Sequence record: MH359124
Length of the DNA: 64,000 nucleotides
Reading direction: 5' to 3' (one strand)
Origin: Escherichia phage SF
Within the stretch, counting starts at the first letter, position 1. Every line of letters begins with the position of its first letter. A model generated the notes under the pieces. That model worked only from the letters and a program-made list of their open reading frames with translations. It had not been told where the DNA came from and ran no database searches. The translations under genes and the position numbers were made by a program. Positions 10,720-42,795 of this stretch are shown here, piece by piece.

Positions 10720-11193
10720 ATGTTATTATCAGGCGCAAAATACAAAGAAGAAAAACAAAAATTTTATGATGCACAGAATGGTAAGTGTCCTATTTGCCAC
10801 CGTGAATTAGACCCTGATGTTCAAGGTAACCATCTTGACCACGACCACGAATTAAACGGGCCAAAAGCAGGTAGAGTTCGTGGGTTACTCTGTAATCTGT
10901 GCAACGCAGCAGAAGGCCAAATGAAGCATAAGTTCAACCGTTCCGGTCTTAAAGGACGTGATGTCGACTACCTCGAATGGCTTGAAGCTCTTCTTGCTTA
11001 TTTGAAACAAGATTATTCTGATAATAATATCCATCCTAATTTTGTTCCAGACAAAACTAAAGAGTTCTCAAGACTAGGTAAAGAGGAAATGATGGCTGAG
11101 ATGCTTCAAAGAGGATTTGAATATAATGAATCTGATACCAAAACACAATTAATAGCTTCATTCAAAAAGCAGCTTAGAAAGAGTTTAAAATGA
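10720..11193 (+). CDS. 49: Endonuclease VII (Holliday junction resolvase)
   Basis: 157 aa, CPICHRELD...HLDHDHELNG...CNLCNAAEG matches T4 gp49. Confidence 0.92.
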   Translation: MLLSGAKYKEEKQKFYDAQNGKCPICHRELDPDVQGNHLDHDHELNGPKAGRVRGLLCNLCNAAEGQMKHKFNRSGLKGRDVDYLEWLEALLAYLKQDYSDNNIHPNFVPDKTKEFSRLGKEEMMAEMLQRGFEYNESDTKTQLIASFKKQLRKSLK

Positions 11194-13007
11194 AAATTGA
11201 AAAAGAAATTGAAGGATTAATTCATAAAACTAATAAAGATCTTTTGAACGAGAATGCTAATAAAGATTCTCGTGTTTTTCCAACTCAACGGGACCTTATG
11301 GCTGGTATTGTGTCTAAGCACATTGCCAAAAATATGGTCCCGTCTTTTATTATGAAAGCACATGAAAGCGGAATTATCCATTTCCATGATATTGATTATT
11401 CCCCTGCACTTCCATTTACTAATTGCTGTTTAGTAGATTTAAAAGGAATGCTTGAAAACGGATTTAAGCTAGGTAACGCTCAAATTGAAACGCCTAAATC
11501 GATCGGTGTTGCTACTGCAATTATGGCACAAATTACTGCACAGGTTGCTTCTCATCAATATGGCGGAACGACTTTTGCGAATGTAGATAAAGTACTTTCT
11601 CCTTATGTTAAACGCACCTATGCAAAACATATTGAGGATGCAGAAAAATGGCAAATCGCTGATGCGTTGAATTATGCTCAATCCAAAACAGAAAAAGATG
11701 TCTATGACGCGTTCCAAGCTTATGAATATGAAGTAAATACTCTCTTTAGTTCAAACGGACAAACGCCTTTTGTAACAATTACATTTGGTACTGGAACTGA
11801 CTGGACTGAACGAATTATTCAGAAGGCAATTCTTAAAAACCGCATTAAAGGCCTTGGTCGTGATGGAATAACTCCTATTTTCCCTAAGCTTGTTATGTTC
11901 GTTGAAGAAGGCGTTAATCTTTATAAAGATGATCCAAACTATGATATTAAACAACTTGCGTTAGAATGTGCAAGCAAAAGAATGTATCCTGACATTATTT
12001 CGGTTAAGAATAATAAAGCTATTACCGGTTCTTCAGTTCCTGTTTCTCCAATGGGTTGCCGTAGTTTCTTGAGCGTATGGAAAGATTCGACTGGTAATGA
12101 AATTCTTGATGGACGTAATAATCTCGGTGTTGTAACACTGAATCTTCCTCGTATCGCATTAGATTCTTATATTGGAACACAGTTCAATGAACAGAAATTT
12201 ATTGAATTGTTCAATGAACGAATGGATTTGTGTTTTGAAGCATTGATGTGTAGAATTAGTTCTTTAAAGGGTGTTAAAGCGACTGTTGCTCCTATTCTTT
12301 ACCAAGAAGGTGCATTTGGGGTTCGTCTTAAACCTGACGATGATATAATTGAGTTATTTAAAAACGGTAGAAGTTCAGTGTCTTTAGGATACATTGGTAT
12401 TCACGAATTGAATATTCTTGTCGGTCGTGATATTGGACAAGAAATTTTGACTAAAATGAATGCTCGTCTTAAGCAGTGGACTGAAAGAACTGGATTTGCT
12501 TTTAGTTTATACTCTACTCCTGCTGAAAACCTTTGTTATCGCTTCTGTAAACTTGATACTGAAAAATATGGAAGTGTAAAGGATGTTACTGATAAAGGCT
12601 GGTACACTAATAGTTTCCATGTTTCAGTAGAAGAAAATATCACTCCGTTTGAAAAGATTTCTCGCGAAGCCCCATATCATTTCATTGCGACAGGCGGTCA
12701 CATTTCTTATGTTGAACTTCCTGATATGAAAAATAACTTAAAAGGTCTTGAGGCTGTCTGGGATTACGCTGCACAACATTTAGATTATTTTGGTGTTAAT
12801 ATGCCAGTAGATAAATGTTTTACATGTGGAAGTACACATGAAATGACTCCTACTGAAAACGGATTTGTTTGTTCTATTTGTGGAGAAACTGATCCTAAAA
12901 AGATGAACACCATAAGAAGAACATGCGGTTATCTTGGAAATCCGAACGAACGTGGATTTAATCTCGGCAAAAATAAAGAAATCATGCATAGGGTTAAACA
13001 CCAATGA
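11190..13007 (+). CDS. nrdD: Anaerobic ribonucleoside-triphosphate reductase, uninterrupted
   Basis: 605 aa, T4 NrdD-like throughout; C-terminal glycyl-radical and Zn-Cys region. Confidence 0.92.
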   Translation: MKIEKEIEGLIHKTNKDLLNENANKDSRVFPTQRDLMAGIVSKHIAKNMVPSFIMKAHESGIIHFHDIDYSPALPFTNCCLVDLKGMLENGFKLGNAQIETPKSIGVATAIMAQITAQVASHQYGGTTFANVDKVLSPYVKRTYAKHIEDAEKWQIADALNYAQSKTEKDVYDAFQAYEYEVNTLFSSNGQTPFVTITFGTGTDWTERIIQKAILKNRIKGLGRDGITPIFPKLVMFVEEGVNLYKDDPNYDIKQLALECASKRMYPDIISVKNNKAITGSSVPVSPMGCRSFLSVWKDSTGNEILDGRNNLGVVTLNLPRIALDSYIGTQFNEQKFIELFNERMDLCFEALMCRISSLKGVKATVAPILYQEGAFGVRLKPDDDIIELFKNGRSSVSLGYIGIHELNILVGRDIGQEILTKMNARLKQWTERTGFAFSLYSTPAENLCYRFCKLDTEKYGSVKDVTDKGWYTNSFHVSVEENITPFEKISREAPYHFIATGGHISYVELPDMKNNLKGLEAVWDYAAQHLDYFGVNMPVDKCFTCGSTHEMTPTENGFVCSICGETDPKKMNTIRRTCGYLGNPNERGFNLGKNKEIMHRVKHQ

Positions 13008-27809: not shown

Positions 27810-27849
27810 TATAATGACATGGACGGTAAACTAATTAAATGAGAGAAAT

Positions 27850-28485
27850 ATGAAAACTACTCCTATTACTATCGCTATTGACGCAATCATAAAACAAGCT
27901 TCTTCTTTGGCCGCTATGGCCAAAGTAATTAGTCAAAACCCTGCTCGTTATAATGCTATTTTAGAAACTCTTCGACGCCCGGGACTTAGTAATTATGAAA
28001 GCCGAGTAATTATTACAGGTGTTGGTAAGAACGCTAATATCGCAACTAAAGCTTCTGAGACTTTTGCTTCACTCGGTATACCGAGTATGTACTTGAACAC
28101 TGGGCATTATTCTCACGGTGATGCAGGATTCATTGCGCCTAATGATGTGTTGATTCATATTAGTCGTTCTGGTAAAACTGAAGAAATGATAGGTGTGGCT
28201 AAGCATCTTAAAATGATTCGTCCGAACGTCAAACAGATTCTGTTGCATTGTAACCCAGACATTCCGCAAGAAAATGAAGCCCTTTTTGATTACTCTTTCT
28301 GTACAGGCATCGCTGTAGAAGTTGACGAGAACTCTTTAGCTCCGACTATGTCCACTACATTGTTGTTAGCGCTTATCGATACGTTTGCTATCAACCTTTC
28401 GTCTGAACGTGGATTTACCTCTAATGACTTCCTTAAGTTCCACCCTGGTGGTGCACTAGGTGCCATGTTACGAGGCGAACAATGA
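27850..28485 (+). CDS. SIS-domain sugar-phosphate isomerase, arabinose-5-phosphate isomerase (KdsD/GutQ) type, no CBS domains
   Basis: ITGVGKN, HGDAG, ISRSGKTEE, APTMSTT, FHPGGALG match the KdsD-type SIS signature. Confidence 0.8.
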   Translation: MKTTPITIAIDAIIKQASSLAAMAKVISQNPARYNAILETLRRPGLSNYESRVIITGVGKNANIATKASETFASLGIPSMYLNTGHYSHGDAGFIAPNDVLIHISRSGKTEEMIGVAKHLKMIRPNVKQILLHCNPDIPQENEALFDYSFCTGIAVEVDENSLAPTMSTTLLLALIDTFAINLSSERGFTSNDFLKFHPGGALGAMLRGEQ

Positions 28486-28625
28486 AAGCAATAACAATAG
28501 GACTTTTACTATTGATGCTTGTCATGACTATCTACTGGAGCTTAACGGCTCCAGTAATGGTCCCGACTCTTATAATCGGATGGATTATGATTGGACTACA
28601 AGCAAAGTATGAATGCTTTAACTAG
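28482..28625 (+). CDS. Hypothetical small membrane peptide (47 aa)
   Basis: Hand-translated MKAITIGLLLLMLVMTIYW...; ATG overlaps upstream stop (ATGA). Confidence 0.35.
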   Translation: MKAITIGLLLLMLVMTIYWSLTAPVMVPTLIIGWIMIGLQAKYECFN

Positions 28626-28666
28626 AATAGTGTACAATACTCCTACTTACCAATGAGGACCACAAC

Positions 28667-30352
28667 ATGAAAAAAGCTGTTATTCTTGGTGCTGGACTGG
28701 CAACTCGTTTGTATCCAATAACGCATCATATTCCTAAGGTGCTTGTTAACTATAAACAAGACACTATTCTGAGCAATTTGTATACAATCTATTCTGACCT
28801 TGGCGCAGATGAAATTATTGTAGTAGTTCATTCAAAATTTGCTGAAACCGTTCGAGCTTATTGTGAGCAAGAAGGGTTCAATGTGACTATTCGTACAGTT
28901 GATGAAGCGTATGGTTCTGCTTATGCTCTTGCTAAATTACACAAAGATTTAGACGGCCATAATGTAATTGTTAACTGGTGTGATATTATTCCCGATTTTG
29001 GTTCATGGTCTTGGAATGTTAACGCAATCTATGTTAAGGGTGACGAATGTCGATATAATTTCGACGGTGAAAATATCACTAACGTAGGTTCAACAGGTGG
29101 TAATGTTGTAGGAATTTATCAGTTCAAAGACTGGGAATTCTATATGGGTTCTACTGATGAGGAAATTCATGAATACTGCAAAGGACGCGATTTCGTAGAA
29201 TTCCTTTACGGCAGTGCATTCAATAAATCAGAGCTTATGAATCTAATTGATTTAGGTGATATGCCTAAACTTGAAAAAGCTCATGAAGTTCGTGAACTTA
29301 ATCGTAGTTTTAATGCAGTTGAAATTGGTGAAGAAACTGTAACTAAATTCGCATTAACCGAACAGGGTCGAGCTCTTCAGAAAGATGAGATTTCGTGGTA
29401 TCTTAAAGTGAAATCAGATTCAGTTCCTCAGTTAGTTTCTGTTAATGAAAATAACTTTGAAATGGAACGCATTAAAGGTAAGCCGGCATTTGAATATATT
29501 AAATCCAAATCAAGTCTTGCTCGACCACAAATTGTTGATGCAATCTTAGATGCACTGAAATTCAGCACAGACACTTATTTTGTAAGTCCTGAAACTGTTC
29601 GTCGTGATTTCACTAAAGAATTCTATACTAAAGTTATTGATCGTTGCGAAAGTATTCAACCATTGATTGATTCATTTGGTAAAATCACACATGTGAACTA
29701 CACTAAGATCGGACGTCTGAAGCCAATGTTGAAACAAGCTTTAGAACACCTTATTCGTTATCATAACCGTTCTCAGGGACAGTACTCTGTTATTCATGGC
29801 GACCCGAACTTCAGTAATACTATGATTACTGATAATGGTGAAGTCAAGTTTATCGACCCTCGTGGATATTTTGGCGAAACCAAGATTTACGGACCAAAAT
29901 TGTATGATGAAGCTAAAGTGCTTTACGCCGTTTCAGGTTATGATGAATTCAACGCTAATCCGACCTGGGGGCAGTTTACTATTGATGAAACAACTTGTAA
30001 TGTGACTATTAACATCAATCCATTAGTTTACAAATATGGAAAGATGAGTTCGTTTAACGAGTATCATCATTTGGCAGTGGCAATTATCTGGATTGCATTA
30101 GGTGGTTATTTCAAGAATAATCCACTTAAAGCGGTAGCCGCATATTATAAAGGTATGGAACTTCTGACTAAGCAATTACGTAACATGGGCCGTGTACTTC
30201 AGGACGGCTCTATTAGTTACGACGTAGCAGAACCTGTAACGGCTACTCTGATTACAAAAAATCCTGGTAAATGGGTACTAACTGATAAAGAAACTGGTGT
30301 TTCTTATCGTCCAATCGGTGGCGATATCACTCATCAATGGGAACGAATCTAA
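28667..30352 (+). CDS. Bifunctional sugar-1-phosphate nucleotidyltransferase (N-terminal) / APH-type sugar kinase (C-terminal)
   Basis: N-terminus ILGAGLATRL (NTP-transferase G-x-G-x-R loop); C-terminus IHGDPNFSN...FIDPRG (APH/ChoK catalytic loop and metal-binding D). Confidence 0.75.
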   Translation: MKKAVILGAGLATRLYPITHHIPKVLVNYKQDTILSNLYTIYSDLGADEIIVVVHSKFAETVRAYCEQEGFNVTIRTVDEAYGSAYALAKLHKDLDGHNVIVNWCDIIPDFGSWSWNVNAIYVKGDECRYNFDGENITNVGSTGGNVVGIYQFKDWEFYMGSTDEEIHEYCKGRDFVEFLYGSAFNKSELMNLIDLGDMPKLEKAHEVRELNRSFNAVEIGEETVTKFALTEQGRALQKDEISWYLKVKSDSVPQLVSVNENNFEMERIKGKPAFEYIKSKSSLARPQIVDAILDALKFSTDTYFVSPETVRRDFTKEFYTKVIDRCESIQPLIDSFGKITHVNYTKIGRLKPMLKQALEHLIRYHNRSQGQYSVIHGDPNFSNTMITDNGEVKFIDPRGYFGETKIYGPKLYDEAKVLYAVSGYDEFNANPTWGQFTIDETTCNVTININPLVYKYGKMSSFNEYHHLAVAIIWIALGGYFKNNPLKAVAAYYKGMELLTKQLRNMGRVLQDGSISYDVAEPVTATLITKNPGKWVLTDKETGVSYRPIGGDITHQWERI

Positions 30353-30738
30353 TGCACCGTGTAGAAAACATGCTTAATCTTTGTTTTGATGTCGATGATT
30401 GTATAACAGAGTGGAATAACAATCGTGATTACGTGAACTTCAAACCAGACGTCGAAATGGTGTCTGCCATTAATGCCCTGTATGATGCAGGGCATACCAT
30501 AACGCTTTACACTGCTCGCGGTATGAAGTCAGTCGGTCCTGGTCGTATAGCAATTGACATTCTCCCAAGTCTGATTCAGAACTTGTCAAACATTGGATTG
30601 AAGTACCATAATTTGCTAACACATAAACCAGTATATGATTGGATTATCGACGACAAAGCTATGCGTCCTGACGAATTCAAAGCTCTTATGAATAAAGGCG
30701 AATTCGAAACATTTAAATCATATAAACCGAATCTATAA
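30352..30738 (+). CDS. HAD-superfamily phosphatase (KdsC-like motif DVDDCIT)
   Basis: DxD nucleophile motif near N-terminus, DDK motif near C-terminus; TAATG coupling to upstream gene. Confidence 0.6.
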   Translation: MHRVENMLNLCFDVDDCITEWNNNRDYVNFKPDVEMVSAINALYDAGHTITLYTARGMKSVGPGRIAIDILPSLIQNLSNIGLKYHNLLTHKPVYDWIIDDKAMRPDEFKALMNKGEFETFKSYKPNL

Positions 30739-30798
30739 TAATTTAAGTAAGACCTGCAAAAACCATCGCGTCAATTAACGTGAGATGCAAAAAAAAAA

Positions 30799-31959
30799 AT
30801 GAATACTTTTAAAATCGGAACGAATTTTGATTTAGCTCTTCTTGATAAAATCGTAGAGCTCAATAAAACTTATCCTAATAGCTTGATAAACGAAGTATAC
30901 GGCTCTACAAGAGAAATGGCTTTTGTAGCAGCCAGACCTGATTTTAGGCTTCCTGACGTTGACAAAAAGATGTTAGAAGATTACGTTAAACGTTGTAACG
31001 AATTGGGTATTTGCTTTAACTATACACTCAACACGATAAATCCTGGTTCAAAAAGAGAACTAGTTGAGTGGAAGAAGAAAGCTATTCAGGATTATGTTCA
31101 GTATCTTTGGTCAATAGGTGTATGGCGTATTACTATCGCTAACCCTGTTGTTATGGAAATTGTTCGTGAAGTCAATAAAGACATTGAGATTGAAGTTTCA
31201 ACAATTCTACATGTCGATGCTGTAACTCAAATCAAATACTTGCATGACCAATATAATATCAAAAAGGTCTGCTGTGGAATTCATAAGAACCGTTCAGTTT
31301 CTTTCCTGAAGCGTGCAGCAGAGTTTTGTAATAAGAACAATATAATATTTGAAGTTCTCGTAAATGAATTCTGCTCTAATGCTGGTAAAGGGTATACAAC
31401 ACATTGTAGCTATCGTGACTCTTGCTATATTTTCCATAGCACCGATGTTACAGTAGATGATGCCAAATCCTTAAATGGATATCCAATGCAACACTGTATT
31501 AAAGCTCGTGATACAGATCCATTTAACTGGTTGAGAACTCGTTTTGTTCGTCCTCAAGATTTGAAACTTTATAATGATATTGGTATCACTCAATTTAAAG
31601 TTTCGGGACGTACAGGTAGCACAGACTACATTTTGAAAGTTCTTGAAGCTTATGCTTCTGAAAAGTTTGAAGGTAATTTGTTAGAACTGTGGAAGCCTTT
31701 AGAGACCATTTTCACTCTTGAAAATGAGACCGAGTTTTCACATACGGTAAATATTGAAACCTCTTTGTTAGATGGCTTTTTAGAAAAAAGGTGGTTCAAA
31801 CATCCGGATTTCGATTGTGCTAATGAAATCTGCGGGACGACGTGTACATATTGTGAAAGATATTATAAACGTCAGTTATCTAAAAATGGGTTATCAGAAA
31901 ACTCTATATCTATTATTGATATAACTAACTCTGATGACGCTTTGAGGTACCCAGAATGA
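30799..31959 (+). CDS. Cys-rich protein, possible peptidase-U32-family / Fe-S enzyme
   Basis: YTLNTI, EIEVSTILH, EVLVNEFCS...HCSYRDSC resemble U32 blocks; C-terminal CGTTCTYC (CX3CX2C). Confidence 0.4.
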   Translation: MNTFKIGTNFDLALLDKIVELNKTYPNSLINEVYGSTREMAFVAARPDFRLPDVDKKMLEDYVKRCNELGICFNYTLNTINPGSKRELVEWKKKAIQDYVQYLWSIGVWRITIANPVVMEIVREVNKDIEIEVSTILHVDAVTQIKYLHDQYNIKKVCCGIHKNRSVSFLKRAAEFCNKNNIIFEVLVNEFCSNAGKGYTTHCSYRDSCYIFHSTDVTVDDAKSLNGYPMQHCIKARDTDPFNWLRTRFVRPQDLKLYNDIGITQFKVSGRTGSTDYILKVLEAYASEKFEGNLLELWKPLETIFTLENETEFSHTVNIETSLLDGFLEKRWFKHPDFDCANEICGTTCTYCERYYKRQLSKNGLSENSISIIDITNSDDALRYPE

Positions 31960-32040
31960 TTTCTAGAAAAAACTTTTAACCACCAACTTAACGAAGAGAT
32001 TTTGACTATGAAAATTAACAGCAACGAACAAATTCTTAAA

Positions 32041-32061
32041 AAGGCCCTTATGGGCCTTTTT
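32041..32061 (+). terminator. Hairpin GGCCC-TTAT-GGGCC followed by T5
   Basis: Seen in sequence. Confidence 0.55.
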
Positions 32062-32237
32062 GAAACTAAAGCGGCTAAAGTGATTAAAGAGCCTGTTCAA
32101 TTGTAATACTACGCTGATGCATTTCTTCATAGCGTTCTTGGAAGTATCGATGCTGAAGCTTTACGTTATATCAACATCGCTAAGAAATTCAAATAAGCTT
32201 TATGAATTGAGTATATAATAACTGTATTGAGGTAAAC

Positions 32238-32954
32238 ATGGGAAAACATAACACAATGAAATATATTAAAGCCGCAGATTTTCAATCCGCATTTAAAGCT
32301 GTCAATCGTGAAATTTTAGAAAATCCACAGTTCGTTACTGATTCTCGTATTGGACGTTGTAATGAAATTGGGTCTATGACAGTAGTTGTTGATACCCCTT
32401 CATCATTCAAAATGACCGACCCACGTATTAATCGCATCTCTTATGAATATGCTGAAGATTTCTGGAAATTTATGATTTCTGGTGGTACTGATGCAGAAGA
32501 AGCATTTAAGGCATATCCTAATGTCGCTAAATTTATTTCTAAACCAAAATCAGATGCTTTGCCTACGAACTTCAACACTTTCTATGGTCCTCGCATTGCG
32601 GCCCAGTTACCAGCTCTTCTCAAAGAACTTAAAGAGAAACCTAATTCACGAAGAGTTGTGTTCCAAATTCTAGAAAGTTCAGATCAGGCTTTGCTTGATT
32701 CAGACGAAACACTTGAATATCCATGTACTGACTCAGTGACTTATTATATTCGTGATGGTAAGCTTTATACCCACTGTCATATGCGTTCTCAGAACTGTGC
32801 TGTTGTTATGCAGTTGGATTTTTATCTCCAAGGAAAATTACTTCATTATATCGCTAACGAATGTGGTGTAGAAGTTGGTGATTATACTCATACCATGGTA
32901 AGTGCCCATGTGTTTGAACGTGATTTTGATTATGTTAAAGGATTCCTTGACTAA
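32238..32954 (+). CDS. 42: dCMP hydroxymethylase (thymidylate-synthase fold), divergent from T4 gp42
   Basis: NSRR, PCTDS (nucleophile Cys), YIRD, HMRSQN...QLDFY align with T4 dCH catalytic blocks; syntenic between 43 and uvsX. Confidence 0.7.
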   Translation: MGKHNTMKYIKAADFQSAFKAVNREILENPQFVTDSRIGRCNEIGSMTVVVDTPSSFKMTDPRINRISYEYAEDFWKFMISGGTDAEEAFKAYPNVAKFISKPKSDALPTNFNTFYGPRIAAQLPALLKELKEKPNSRRVVFQILESSDQALLDSDETLEYPCTDSVTYYIRDGKLYTHCHMRSQNCAVVMQLDFYLQGKLLHYIANECGVEVGDYTHTMVSAHVFERDFDYVKGFLD

Positions 32955-33853
32955 TGGCTATTTTCCGCGTACCTATCTTGAGTATGCGGTCTTATGAAAC
33001 TGGACAGTATGCTATCCTTAAGGATGGCAACTTCCAACTTCATTTGCACCGTGCTAATCCAGGTGATGTGATTACATATCCACGTAATGCATCTGATATT
33101 AAAGAATGTGAACGTCTTTTCCCGGAATTTAAGTTTGTTCCATTATGGTATAAAGATAACGCATATAACACTCGTAAATATTTCTGGTCTGAAAATGAAT
33201 TTGTGGTTGATTCATTAATTGATTATTATGATTGTGATTTTCTAATCACAGATATCACTGGATATGACGGCACTTTTGACGTAGAATTCAATTTCAATAT
33301 CACTGCGGACCCTAATAAACCACGTTTTTATATTGACGAATTCTTAAAAACCGACATGTTGTCTGTTAATCGTTCACTTCAAACTACTGTGTTGAATGAA
33401 CGTCAAAAAGAAGTGCTGGTTAACGCAGGTGCAGATGGTAATAAGATTATCGTAACCCGGAAAGTTATACGTCCTTCCATCATGCAGCGTCTTGTAGGTG
33501 ATTTGGCTCCTATTCATCTAGATGGTATTTTTCATCCATTTCGAATTAGTGACCCGTGTTATCGTTTTGAACAAGTGGTTGAATGTGCAATTCAATTAGG
33601 TCAACCGCTTTATATAACCGATCCAAATAATAGCTTCGACAGAAATAAGTATCCTGAAGAAGCGCTGATTCGAATTTTTAATCCAACTAAAACTGAGTAC
33701 TATCAAATTCTTAAAGGACGGCCGAAGATTCAATATTTCGAAAATCCTGAAGAAGTATTCCATCCAGGTCTTGGCGAGTTCATCTACTTTAACGCTTTAA
33801 TTTCTTCACCGTATAATATACCTAAATATGAAGATGTCGTAATCGAGGAATAA
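32954..33853 (+). CDS. Hypothetical protein (299 aa) at the position of T4 beta-gt
   Basis: ORF; no motif recognised. Confidence 0.5.
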   Translation: MAIFRVPILSMRSYETGQYAILKDGNFQLHLHRANPGDVITYPRNASDIKECERLFPEFKFVPLWYKDNAYNTRKYFWSENEFVVDSLIDYYDCDFLITDITGYDGTFDVEFNFNITADPNKPRFYIDEFLKTDMLSVNRSLQTTVLNERQKEVLVNAGADGNKIIVTRKVIRPSIMQRLVGDLAPIHLDGIFHPFRISDPCYRFEQVVECAIQLGQPLYITDPNNSFDRNKYPEEALIRIFNPTKTEYYQILKGRPKIQYFENPEEVFHPGLGEFIYFNALISSPYNIPKYEDVVIEE

Positions 33854-33854
33854 A

Positions 33855-34403
33855 ATGGCTAAAATTATTTTAGTAGATGGCCCGGATAATGCTGGTAAAA
33901 CAACTTTCATTAATGACATAATGGAAATTAGTGAAAGATATGTAAAGATTGATTTCCCTAAACGAACAGTTGATGGACGTTTCGACGTTAAGTCTCGAAA
34001 TGAAGTTGGCTGTTTCGAAACGATGTTGAATTATTTAGACCCTACTAAGATTTATCTGTTAGACCGTGGATATATTAGTAACTGGGTTTATGGACGTATT
34101 CGACAAGATGCGGACTCGGTTCTTGACGTTTATGAACAGGATTATGTTCGTCTTTGCCAAAACCACGATGTGTTCACAATTATTTTAACACGTAACGAAA
34201 TGACTGAAAGTTTTGAAGACGACCTTATTACTTTGTCTTCATTCGGTTTTAATACAGTAATTTCATATTTTGAAGAGTTTGCAATCCATAACGAAATCCA
34301 AACGTATCAATTACTTAATCATGATGGTGCTAACAAAGTTATAGGATTTAATGCAAGCGAACGTAATAATTTGATTACAGAAATCATCAAATGGGCTCGT
34401 TAA
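33855..34403 (+). CDS. P-loop nucleotide kinase, thymidylate/dNMP-kinase-like
   Basis: Walker A GPDNAGKTT and DRGY motif resembling the TMPK DRY motif. Confidence 0.55.
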   Translation: MAKIILVDGPDNAGKTTFINDIMEISERYVKIDFPKRTVDGRFDVKSRNEVGCFETMLNYLDPTKIYLLDRGYISNWVYGRIRQDADSVLDVYEQDYVRLCQNHDVFTIILTRNEMTESFEDDLITLSSFGFNTVISYFEEFAIHNEIQTYQLLNHDGANKVIGFNASERNNLITEIIKWAR

Positions 34404-34423
34404 GAGCCTGTTTAAAGTTTTTA

Positions 34424-34450
34424 AATGCTGTATAACCATTAGTATATAAT
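34424..34450 (+). promoter_or_regulatory. Candidate middle promoter for uvsX (TGCTGTA MotA-like box, 12 nt, TATAAT)
   Basis: Motifs read directly. Confidence 0.4.
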
Positions 34451-34503
34451 CATCTTATCTTTTAAACATGAGTAAAATATAATGATGCCTATGGAAAAAT
34501 ACA

Positions 34504-38554: not shown

Positions 38555-38923
38555 ATGAAAAAATTAATCGCTTTAGCAATGGTATTTGGATTAACCGGAT
38601 GTGGTGCCCATGGCTTTATCCCTAATAACGTTGGCCAACTGATTTACAATCCGAATGTTAAACAGTATGAACAACCTAAAGTTGAAGTGGAAGACCCGGT
38701 TACTGTAGGTAATCGAATGATTCAAGCTGATGCTCATGCTCAACGTTATCGTGATTCTGATACTGTGGCTGTGTCAAAAGAACAACGCGTTAAAGAACAT
38801 TGCTTACAGGCTACTGAAATCGCATTCATTCGCTATGTTGAAACAACTGGTAAAGAGCCTACCCAGAAACAAATCGCAAATAACTACGTCCAGTGTATTG
38901 AACGTTTAAACAAATTTAATTAA
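38555..38923 (+). CDS. Putative lipoprotein (lipobox LTGC)
   Basis: Signal peptide MKKLIALAMVFGLTGCG. Confidence 0.55.
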   Translation: MKKLIALAMVFGLTGCGAHGFIPNNVGQLIYNPNVKQYEQPKVEVEDPVTVGNRMIQADAHAQRYRDSDTVAVSKEQRVKEHCLQATEIAFIRYVETTGKEPTQKQIANNYVQCIERLNKFN

Positions 38924-38984
38924 TTGGTTTACGCCAAAGTTAAAACAAGATATTATAAACATAACAAATCAAGAGGAAATTAAC

Positions 38985-39233
38985 ATGGAATTATTCGTAG
39001 CTAGTTCAGTAGCGGTTTTAATCGCAGGTATTGGTTCAATCATCATTTACATGTTGCCTTGGGTAATCGCACTTATTCGTGGCACAAAAAGCACAACAGC
39101 AATCTTCTTTGTATCTTTACTCTTTAACTGGACGATGATTGGTTGGATTGGAACTTTAATTTGGTCTATCGTTGCCGAAAAGAAATCTGCCCAGCAGCCT
39201 CAACAAGTAATTATTATTCGCGAAAAAGAATAA
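38985..39233 (+). CDS. Hypothetical membrane protein
   Basis: Two hydrophobic segments. Confidence 0.5.
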   Translation: MELFVASSVAVLIAGIGSIIIYMLPWVIALIRGTKSTTAIFFVSLLFNWTMIGWIGTLIWSIVAEKKSAQQPQQVIIIREKE

Positions 39234-42273: not shown

Positions 42274-42795
42274 ATGGCGCACTTTAACGAATGTTCACAA
42301 CTTATTTCTGGTGTTGATAAAGCAGAAGAAGCTTATTTTAATGCTCTGATTCATGAAGATAAAGACCCATTGCAGGTAATGCTTGATATGCAGAAATCTT
42401 TACAGGTTCGTCTGGCAAATGACAAGCCTGAACATAACAAACATCCTGATGAATTGGCCACTGCTGGCGATGTTGTTGATTGGCTGCGTAATCAGAAAGA
42501 TTATATCGATGATGAATTCCGTGAACTGCTGACTTCACTTGGTGGTATGAGCAATGGTGAAAAAGCCGCTAGCTCTGTATGGAAGCCGTGGAAAGCACAA
42601 CATGCTGAATATCGAAATCGACGTATCGATGAACTGTCTCCTGAAGACCAGCTTGAAATTAAATTCGAGATGATTGATATCCTCCACTTTGTTCTGAATA
42701 TGTTCCAAGGCCTAGGTCTTTCCGCTGAAGAAATCTTTAAACTTTACTACTTGAAAAACCAACACAACTTTGAACGCCAGGATAATGGTTACTGA
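42274..42795 (+). CDS. 56: dCTP/dCDP pyrophosphatase gp56 (MazG-like)
   Basis: MAHFNEC...matches T4 gp56. Confidence 0.9.
   Translation: MAHFNECSQLISGVDKAEEAYFNALIHEDKDPLQVMLDMQKSLQVRLANDKPEHNKHPDELATAGDVVDWLRNQKDYIDDEFRELLTSLGGMSNGEKAASSVWKPWKAQHAEYRNRRIDELSPEDQLEIKFEMIDILHFVLNMFQGLGLSAEEIFKLYYLKNQHNFERQDNGY

Follow-up and report, generated by a model that had tools for sequence, protein, structure and literature searches.

The DNA analysed here is a 64,000-nucleotide stretch of Escherichia phage SF (MH359124), referred to as the window, and the gene in question is the open reading frame (ORF) at positions 32238-32954, which an earlier note had singled out as a divergent homologue of T4 gene 42, encoding a deoxycytidine monophosphate (dCMP) hydroxymethylase. 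This ORF almost certainly encodes AfhB, a 5-hydroxy-dCMP (5hodCMP) synthase, that is, a flavin- and O2-dependent dCMP 5-hydroxylase with the thymidylate synthase (TS) fold. The identity, signature residues and gene context of the protein are established in this analysis; the enzyme, its structure, its signature and its gene cluster are already published (Lee et al., Nucleic Acids Research, NAR, 2026; Nat Chem Biol 2026). The AfhB identity, being already known, is of modest interest in itself, and its value is corrective: a gene that public records label thymidylate synthase or dCMP hydroxymethylase encodes the first enzyme on the way to DNA containing arabinosyl-5-hydroxycytosine. This modification alters the encounters of therapeutic-candidate coliphages with restriction, CRISPR and type IV defence systems.

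Divergence of the ORF from T4 gene 42

The window belongs to a T4-like phage of the RB69 group (Mosigvirus). Within it, the flagged gene is a single ATG-to-stop ORF of 238 amino acids on the plus strand, and the coordinates noted earlier match it exactly. The gene and its translation signal are as follows:

32238-32954, plus strand: AfhB / 5hodCMP synthase, assigned with near certainty from PDB matches, two to three differences from characterised proteins, and signature residues
32229-32232, plus strand: ribosome-binding site GAGG, 6 nt 5' of the start of the flagged ORF

Each ORF of the window was compared with T4 by tblastn. The flagged ORF shows 24.8% identity to T4 gene 42 over 218 amino acids (E 4e-10), which is the lowest value in the set of 49 ORFs that reach 100 amino acids and have a T4 match covering at least 70% of their length; the median of this set is 68.3%. 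Neighbouring replication genes are far closer to T4, with identities of 61.5% for gp43, 67.7% for UvsX, 83% for gp40, 85% for gp41 and 77.8% for gp44, and the same is true of gp62 (73%), gp45 (79%), gp46 (83%), gp55 (90.7%) and Dda (78.6%). The outlier status of the ORF is genuine and lies far beyond the spread of its neighbours. The earlier note was therefore right that this gene is much more divergent than those around it and that gp55, UvsX, Dda and gp44 remain close to T4, and the pairwise alignment that it suggested as a check gives an identity to T4 gp42 that is not comparable to that of the neighbouring genes. In BLASTP, T4 gp42 (25%, 51.6 bits) is no better a match to the flagged protein than E. 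coli ThyA (57.4 bits). A single replication-cluster gene that is far more divergent than its neighbours represents a sound cue for switches in DNA chemistry.

It had also been proposed that the protein keeps only the catalytic blocks of gp42. All of the listed blocks are present, namely NSRR (136-139), PCTDS (162-166), YIRD (170-173), MRSQN (182-186) and QLDFY (192-196), and the Pfam thymidylate synthase model PF00303 matches only the C-terminal half (residues 122-235, E 2e-15), in keeping with this proposal. However, the blocks are not simply conserved: MRSQN holds N186, a diagnostic Asp-to-Asn change, and thus contains the residue that separates hydroxylases from hydroxymethylases.

Assignment to the AfhB family

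A phmmer search of the PDB with the flagged protein returns 9iqc/9ir2 and 9iqu at E ~1e-160. After these come ordinary thymidylate synthases (4e-12) and MilA, a CMP hydroxymethylase (2e-11), and T4 dCMP hydroxymethylase (dCH) is not among the best 60 PDB matches. An AlphaFold (AF2) model of the protein, with a predicted local distance difference test score (pLDDT) of 86, was compared with the PDB by Foldseek. It matches 9iqc, entitled 'Monooxygenase dependent on riboflavin with dCMP and FAD', with a template modelling (TM) score of 0.94, and also 9iqu, entitled 'phage HY126 dCMP hydroxylase-AfhB with substrate dCMP'. MilA is the best structural match after AfhB (TM 0.82), and none of the 50 best Foldseek matches is T4 dCH.

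These PDB entries belong to a characterised group, as HY126 AfhB, RB69 gp48 and DLP3 gp80 are 5hodCMP synthases (PMC13326640; He et al. Nat Chem Biol 2026), with 9iqc, 9ir2 and 9iqu as structures of HY126 AfhB. The flagged protein is 99.2% identical to HY126 AfhB, with two differences, E87 (K in HY126) and T110 (A in HY126), and 98.7% identical to RB69 gp48, with three, S17 (T), Q31 (E) and T110 (A). No functional effect is expected from these substitutions. HY126 AfhB and RB69 gp48 also share with the window protein the same length, the catalytic Cys with the Glu/Asn/Asp (E/N/D) signature described below, the gene neighbourhood and the genus Mosigvirus.

On such ~99%-identical proteins, others have shown that dCMP is the substrate, that 5hodCMP is the product, that the added oxygen originates from O2 and that a flavin is bound. 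Specifically, RB69 DNA contains arabinosyl-5-hydroxycytosine and not arabinosyl-hydroxymethylcytosine (Lee et al. NAR 2026, PMC13326640). In the same study, RB69 gp48 combined with a deoxynucleoside monophosphate (dNMP) kinase led to 5-hydroxy-dC in E. coli DNA, 18O2 labelled the 5-hydroxydeoxycytidine (5hodC) made by gp48, showing that the oxygen derives from O2, and the purified protein bound a flavin resembling flavin mononucleotide (FMN) (PMC13326640). The hydroxylases are marked by an Asp-to-Asn change at position 169 of E. coli ThyA, together with N177D and L143E, of which N177D causes dCMP to be preferred over deoxyuridine monophosphate (dUMP) (PMC13326640).

The flagged protein carries this complete signature: E160 (L143E), N186 (D169N), D194 (N177D) and the nucleophile C163 (C146 in E. 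coli; E. coli ThyA numbering). C163, E160, N186 and D194 are invariant across 40 homologues with identities down to 53%. D194 corresponds to T4 D179 and E. coli N177, the cytosine-specifying position. At the D169 position the alignment places Asn in the flagged protein and Asp in T4 gp42, Aeromonas phage 31 gp42 and ThyA. R37, R138, R139 and R183 are the phosphate-binding arginines. Where ThyA has the loop with W80 and W83, the alignment shows an invariant FYGPRI without Trp, and the C-terminal segment of ThyA (beyond approximately residue 215) has no counterpart in the alignment. The altered Trp loop and the missing C-terminal segment are consistent with the loss of folate use.

Most database records give the gene another identity, that of an ordinary thymidylate synthase converting dUMP to deoxythymidine monophosphate. 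TS models are the best Pfam and NCBIfam matches and many GenBank records are named accordingly, but the NCBIfam scores all fall far below the trusted cutoffs (best 69.7 bits versus 174.6), Asn177-to-Asp favours dCMP, residues on the folate side are altered and the crystal entries hold dCMP. The probability of this identity is negligible. Features common to the window protein and to E. coli and L. casei ThyA are the fold, four phosphate-binding arginines, the catalytic Cys and, from the deoxyribose-binding His/Tyr pair, His207; Tyr209 of this pair is Phe226 in the window protein. The window protein differs from ThyA in sequence (20% identity; N177D, D169N and L143E), in substrate, cofactor and product, and in the absence of the folate loop and the C-terminal segment from its alignment.

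A second alternative takes the protein to be a true gene-42 orthologue, a folate-dependent dCMP hydroxymethylase that has drifted or rapidly co-evolved with a new sugar modification. The gene occupies the genomic slot of T4 gene 42, C163 and the cytosine-specifying D194 are present, and several GenBank records annotate a dCMP hydroxymethylase. T4 gp42 (PDB 1b5d/1b5e/1b49) resembles the window protein in its TS fold, Cys nucleophile, cytosine-selecting Asp, dCMP substrate, acidic residue at the L143 position and placement in the 43-uvsX slot beside a DNA glycosyltransferase. However, the two share 24-25% identity, and T4 gp42 keeps Asp at the D169 position and the Trp loop where the window protein has Asn and FYGPRI. 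The residue that changes to Asn is the folate-contacting Asp, which Aeromonas phage 31 gp42 also retains, and the ThyA C-terminal segment is without counterpart. T4 gp42 adds CH2OH by means of methylene-tetrahydrofolate (methylene-THF) and water, whereas the AfhB type binds flavin and adds OH from O2, and the window protein is 99% identical to enzymes shown to hydroxylate, not hydroxymethylate. In the reciprocal phmmer search, T4 gp42 as query finds 9iqc at E 3.7e-6 (rounded, 4e-6), below B. subtilis and E. coli ThyA. The T4 partner genes alpha-gt and beta-gt have no match in the window at E 0.01 (tblastn). A hydroxymethylase is therefore very improbable. The earlier designation as dCMP hydroxymethylase was correct as to the TS superfamily, the gene-42 slot, C163 and D194, and is replaced as to function by dCMP 5-hydroxylation.

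MilA, the CMP 5-hydroxymethylase of mildiomycin (PDB 5jnh, 5b6d), is the best full-length phmmer match; it is 24% identical, and the residues at its N177 and L143 positions are both Asp. It differs from the window protein in being folate-dependent, in using a ribonucleotide substrate, in being ~80 residues longer and in carrying Asp at the D169 position, which gives it the triplet D/D/D.

Two limits apply to the assignment to 5hodCMP synthase. The first concerns the physiological flavin: PDB titles give flavin adenine dinucleotide (FAD) and riboflavin, whereas the NAR paper gives an FMN-like flavin. The second is that the activity of the window allele, which has E87 and T110 relative to the crystallised protein, is presumed by transfer from near-identical proteins. 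No data contradict the assignment. With methylene-THF, the window enzyme should yield no hydroxymethylated product.

Proposed reaction and pathway

The window enzyme is almost certainly a TS-fold protein that exchanged its folate cofactor for flavin and hydroxylates C5 of dCMP with an oxygen atom from O2. By analogy with TS-family chemistry, Cys163 would add to C6 of dCMP, as in all enzymes of the family, and the activated C5 would attack a flavin-derived oxygen species that arises from reduced flavin and O2. Cys163 would then be eliminated, which would free 5-hydroxy-dCMP and regenerate the enzyme. The choice of cytosine over uracil is attributed to D194.

Downstream of this step, 5hodCMP would be raised to the triphosphate by phage kinases (the kinase at 33855-34403 and gp1, encoded elsewhere in the genome). 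The DNA polymerase would use the 5hodC triphosphate instead of dCTP, which gp56 is predicted to exclude from the DNA precursor pool while providing dCMP. The neighbouring glycosyltransferase would subsequently add arabinofuranose from UDP-arabinose, with UDP-arabinofuranose supplied by the upstream isomerase, AfhE and AfhF.

The 43-uvsX cassette

The entire interval between genes 43 and uvsX (27810-34503; 6.7 kb) is a different cassette from that of T4, in which the imm.1-imm-42-beta-gt-segA block of T4 is replaced. Only the flagged ORF has a T4 counterpart in this interval (tblastn). The cassette comprises an arabinose-5-phosphate isomerase, AfhE, AfhF, a U32 protein, AfhB, an arabinosyltransferase and a kinase; it is collinear with the HY126 and RB69 clusters and its proteins are 97-100% identical to theirs. 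A segA homologue and a second TS-family gene were searched for in the window and not found. The genes surrounding the flagged ORF, with gp56 from further downstream, are as follows:

27850-28485, plus strand: D-arabinose-5-phosphate isomerase (RB69 gp55 homologue), 100% identical to RB69ORF055c; the collinear HY126 gene is annotated likewise
28667-30352, plus strand: AfhE-like bifunctional sugar kinase / UDP-arabinose pyrophosphorylase of 561 amino acids, 99.7% identical to RB69 gp52:53; role from the literature
30337-30738, plus strand: AfhF-like HAD phosphatase, 98.5% identical to RB69 gp51; role from the literature
30799-31959, plus strand: U32-family Fe-S protein of 386 amino acids (RB69 gp50 homologue), identified by Pfam Peptidase_U32
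31956-32196, plus strand: decayed RB69ORF049c homologue, from DNA alignment with RB69
32195-32232, plus strand: possible afhB expression signals, with a MotA-box-like AAGCTTTA (32195-32202), 11 nt, TATAAT (32214-32219) and GAGG (32229-32232)
32954-33853, plus strand: DNA arabinosyltransferase 1, a single intact ORF of 299 amino acids (RB69 gp46:47 homologue), 97% identical to RB69ORF047c over the covered part
33855-34403, plus strand: thymidylate-kinase-like nucleotide kinase (RB69 gp45 homologue), 98.9% identical to RB69ORF045c
42274-42795, plus strand: gp56 dCTPase, 71.7% identical to T4 gp56; role per the T4 record

In the AfhE-like ORF, Pfam NTP_transferase covers residues 3-99 and weak matches to kinase families cover 344-409. 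The AfhF-like ORF matches TIGR01689, a capsule biosynthesis phosphatase model, at E 3.5e-13, below the trusted cutoff; AfhF converts arabinose-1,5-bisphosphate to arabinose-1-phosphate. The arabinosyltransferase ORF has no Pfam match, and its continuity agrees with the report that a sequencing error has divided a single RB69 gene into ORFs 46 and 47 (PMC13326640). The kinase of the RB69 gp45 type is a structural assignment in Table 1 of the same paper (PMC13326640).

The gene immediately upstream of afhB is decayed. RB69ORF049c encodes 79 amino acids in RB69, and the window copy is broken by a 1-nt insertion in an A-run (approximately 31966-31972) and by a second lesion, GAA to TAA, at 32104-32106. 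A GC-rich hairpin lies within this homologue at 32038-32061. It is followed by the putative signals for afhB, in which AAGCTTTA, an 11-nt spacer and TATAAT resemble a T4 MotA-dependent middle promoter. Such a promoter would give afhB its own transcription start after the decayed ORF. A generic scan of the cassette for sigma-70 promoters and terminators gave no excess of sites over shuffled sequences.

Origin of the cassette and its evolution

The cassette is embedded in a T4-like gene order. The plus strand of the window corresponds to the T4 minus strand, with collinear order from the nrdC region through 55, 47, 46, 45, 44, 62, regA and 43, continuing through uvsX, 40, 41, 61, 56, dda, 39, rIIA/B and 52. 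Over a 24-kb stretch around the flagged gene, identity to Escherichia phage AV117 and ~150 other records is 97.8%.

The phrase 'much more divergent' does not hold if it is read as fast evolution. Between genera, afhB retains 78-80% identity, and UvsX, gp41 and gp43 retain 68-90%. Relative to Serratia phage LC53 the values are 79.7% for afhB, 70% for UvsX, 71% for gp41, 74% for gp43 and 61% for gp61; relative to Dhakavirus IME08 they are 78.4% for afhB, 84% for gp43, 68% for gp41 and 62% for gp61. The gene is not fast-evolving and is conserved among 5-hydroxycytosine (5hoC) phages like the core replication genes; its discontinuity arises only towards T4-type gp42. Across 50,697 phage records, identity to the flagged protein is bimodal, with no record between ~60% and 33%. 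At 61% and above stand Straboviridae with the cassette, at ~30-33% Rhizobium Pootjesviridae and at ~25% T4-type gp42. Rhizobium Pootjesviridae are also 5hoC phages (PMC13326640). Both the conservation of afhB and the bimodal distribution argue against a drifting hydroxymethylase.

A neighbour-joining (NJ) tree of 148 sequences, a rough method applied to a sample biased towards the query, nests the window protein in a large E/N/D clade that includes members from outside Straboviridae, with T4-type gp42 as a long branch outside it. In the tree T4-type gp42 is sister to the clade of the flagged protein, which speaks for a gene-42 orthologue. We conclude that two distinct TS-family lineages fill one slot in different T4-like phages. 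The data do not decide between lateral cassette exchange and very old in-place divergence. The earlier suggestion that the gene was acquired with the cassette is nevertheless the better-supported alternative, as the genes between 43 and uvsX are all unlike those of T4. GC content stays at 0.35-0.40 across the window, with no composition step at 27.8-34.5 kb, indicating that a cassette exchange would be old.

The imm.1 and imm homologues of the window are located at 38555-39233 (plus strand), between dmd and sp, and are 33% and 65% identical to T4. In T4 imm.1 and imm lie between genes 42 and 43, and Dhakavirus IME08 keeps imm beside gene 43 (L009:4545-4844). This placement suggests that cassette exchange was accompanied by local rearrangement in the Mosigvirus lineage.

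Family size and annotation

When 1.84 billion cluster representatives were searched exhaustively with HMMER, 2760 relatives of the flagged protein were found at E <=1e-3 and 339 at E <=1e-10. Among the best 150 representatives, just over half (76/150) carry the E/N/D triplet, and 42/150 have the D/D/D triplet typical of MilA and dCH. A further 18/150 have Ser (11), Cys (5) or His (2) at the D169 position, for example P0142, P0163, P0192 and P0218. These relatives retain Glu at the L143 and Asp at the N177 positions, and the published rule predicts no chemistry for them.

Four metagenomic E/N/D proteins (P0124, P0126, P0127 and P0131; 427-463 amino acids) are fused to a C-terminal histidine-phosphatase domain, His_Phos_1. 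Public names for the afhB family include thymidylate synthase, dCMP hydroxymethylase, deoxycytidylate 5-hydroxymethyltransferase and hypothetical protein. In some records the adjacent arabinosyltransferase appears as 'RNA polymerase binding protein', and the U32 gene as 'peptidase' or 'collagenase-like protease'.

A possible anaerobic route through the U32 protein

The requirement of AfhB for O2 raises the question of how an O2-needing hydroxylase serves a phage in the anoxic gut, where each cytosine of the progeny genomes has to be hydroxylated. One candidate answer is encoded two genes upstream of afhB. We tentatively propose, with somewhat less than even probability, that the U32 ORF at 30799-31959 encodes a C5 hydroxylase that depends on prephenate but not on O2 and acts on deoxycytidylate or on DNA cytosine. 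In this arrangement the U32 Fe-S protein would supply the 5-hydroxyl under anoxia with prephenate as donor and AfhB would form the aerobic half, a division of labour that complements the AfhB assignment and is likewise possible at a level slightly short of probable. This proposal is the part of the analysis that deserves experiment.

Membership in the U32 family is supported by the Pfam Peptidase_U32 score (42.4 bits, gathering cutoff 22.4). The ORF has ten invariant cysteines, including C203 and C209, and a weak hidden Markov model (HMM) alignment pairs C209 with C176 of RlhA and C180 of UbiV, with the Cys spacing off by one residue. Its best PDB fold match in Foldseek is the U32 protein 5d88; no U32 hydroxylase occurs among its 50 best Foldseek PDB matches, and a sequence search against the PDB gave nothing meaningful. 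With 83.7% identity to LC53, U32 is the most conserved gene of the cassette. The RB69 homologue is listed as 'sugar or heterocycle reductase', without discussion (PMC13326640).

The U32 proteins that have been characterised are Fe-S hydroxylases that need no O2 and take the oxygen from prephenate, and two of them act on C5 of a pyrimidine. RlhA produces 5-hydroxycytidine (ho5C2501) in 23S rRNA, with C169 and C176 essential, and TrhP produces 5-hydroxyuridine (ho5U34) in tRNA, where TrhO is its O2-dependent counterpart. UbiU/V stand in for the flavin monooxygenases UbiI/H/F under anoxia. The phage protein resembles RlhA, TrhP and UbiU-UbiV in its above-cutoff U32 domain, FKxxGR motif and extra C-terminal Cys cluster, its invariant Cys pair may correspond to C169/C176 of RlhA, and its family is genomically linked to prephenate supply. 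Unlike these proteins, it lacks RNA-binding or DUF3656 parts and is phage-encoded, among deoxynucleotide genes.

The link to prephenate is seen in related genera. A chorismate mutase gene lies between the U32 gene and afhB in 54 phage genomes (LC53 and 53 others). Its product scores 44.6 bits with Pfam CM_2 (cutoff 27), and its stop and start codons overlap with those of the U32 gene and afhB. Prephenate is the product of chorismate mutase. Additionally, on one metagenomic contig a U32 homologue is followed by a gene for 3-deoxy-D-arabino-heptulosonate 7-phosphate (DAHP) synthase, assigned from 237 bits with the DAHP synthase (DAHPS) model versus 63 bits with that for 3-deoxy-D-manno-octulosonate 8-phosphate synthase (KDO8PS). 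DAHP synthase is the first enzyme of the shikimate pathway.

The distribution of the gene points in the same direction. Phages with U32 homologues (220 genomes, identities of at least 80% throughout) have hosts among Enterobacterales and Shewanella; no Acinetobacter or Rhizobium phage, whose hosts are aerobic, has one, though many of these phages carry AfhB-type genes. More distant homologues (50-58% identity) in megaphage-like contigs adjoin genes for dCMP deaminase, dUTPase/DCD, deoxynucleotidase and deoxynucleoside kinase, and DNA glycosyltransferases and UDP-galactopyranose mutase are adjacent on the same contigs. No TS-family ORF was found within 7-8 kb of the U32 homologues there.

Several findings stand against such a dual route. 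Dhakavirus IME08, a phage of E. coli, has the cassette without the U32 gene, and host and phage phylogeny are confounded in the distribution. Homology to RlhA, TrhP and UbiU is remote, as the E. coli paralogues give HMM scores of 4-12 bits, and the evidence for prephenate dependence and O2 independence is contextual. The window itself lacks chorismate mutase, as judged by tblastn with the LC53 protein. In the slot that this gene occupies in related genera, the window holds only the decayed RB69ORF049c homologue, which is unrelated to chorismate mutase, and the host would thus have to supply prephenate.

If the U32 proposal is true, these phages would reach 5-hydroxycytosine by two routes, an aerobic one through the flavin enzyme AfhB and an anaerobic one through the Fe-S protein U32, mirroring UbiI/H/F versus UbiU/V and TrhO versus TrhP in the hosts. 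In the megaphage-like contigs, U32 would be the sole source of a hydroxyl handle for DNA glycosylation in anaerobic habitats. Confirmation would carry prephenate-dependent hydroxylation beyond RNA and quinones, to DNA precursors and to viruses. No paper in the searchable literature, which did not cover He et al. 2026 and Mahler et al. 2025, ties U32 proteins to phage DNA modification.

Neighbourhoods of U32 homologues were located at L008:5494-7004, L019:7001-8891, L020:7001-9000 and L010:7447-9086. On one metagenomic contig (L011:12160-14360) the U32 homologue shares its neighbourhood with a radical SAM/SPASM protein and a very divergent second U32-like paralogue, in a setting of deoxynucleotide salvage genes (NT5C, the deoxynucleoside kinase dNK and nucleoside deoxyribosyltransferase); L010 also has a radical SAM/SPASM protein near U32.

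A possible recent exchange at nrdD

Outside the cassette, the NrdD homologue (11190-13007, plus strand) is exceptional in its closeness to T4, as its residues 181-605 are 98.8% identical to T4, where the median for the window is 68%. The pattern suggests that this gene was recently exchanged with a T4-type phage, perhaps in connection with the homing endonucleases and the intron that flank or interrupt nrdD in T4.

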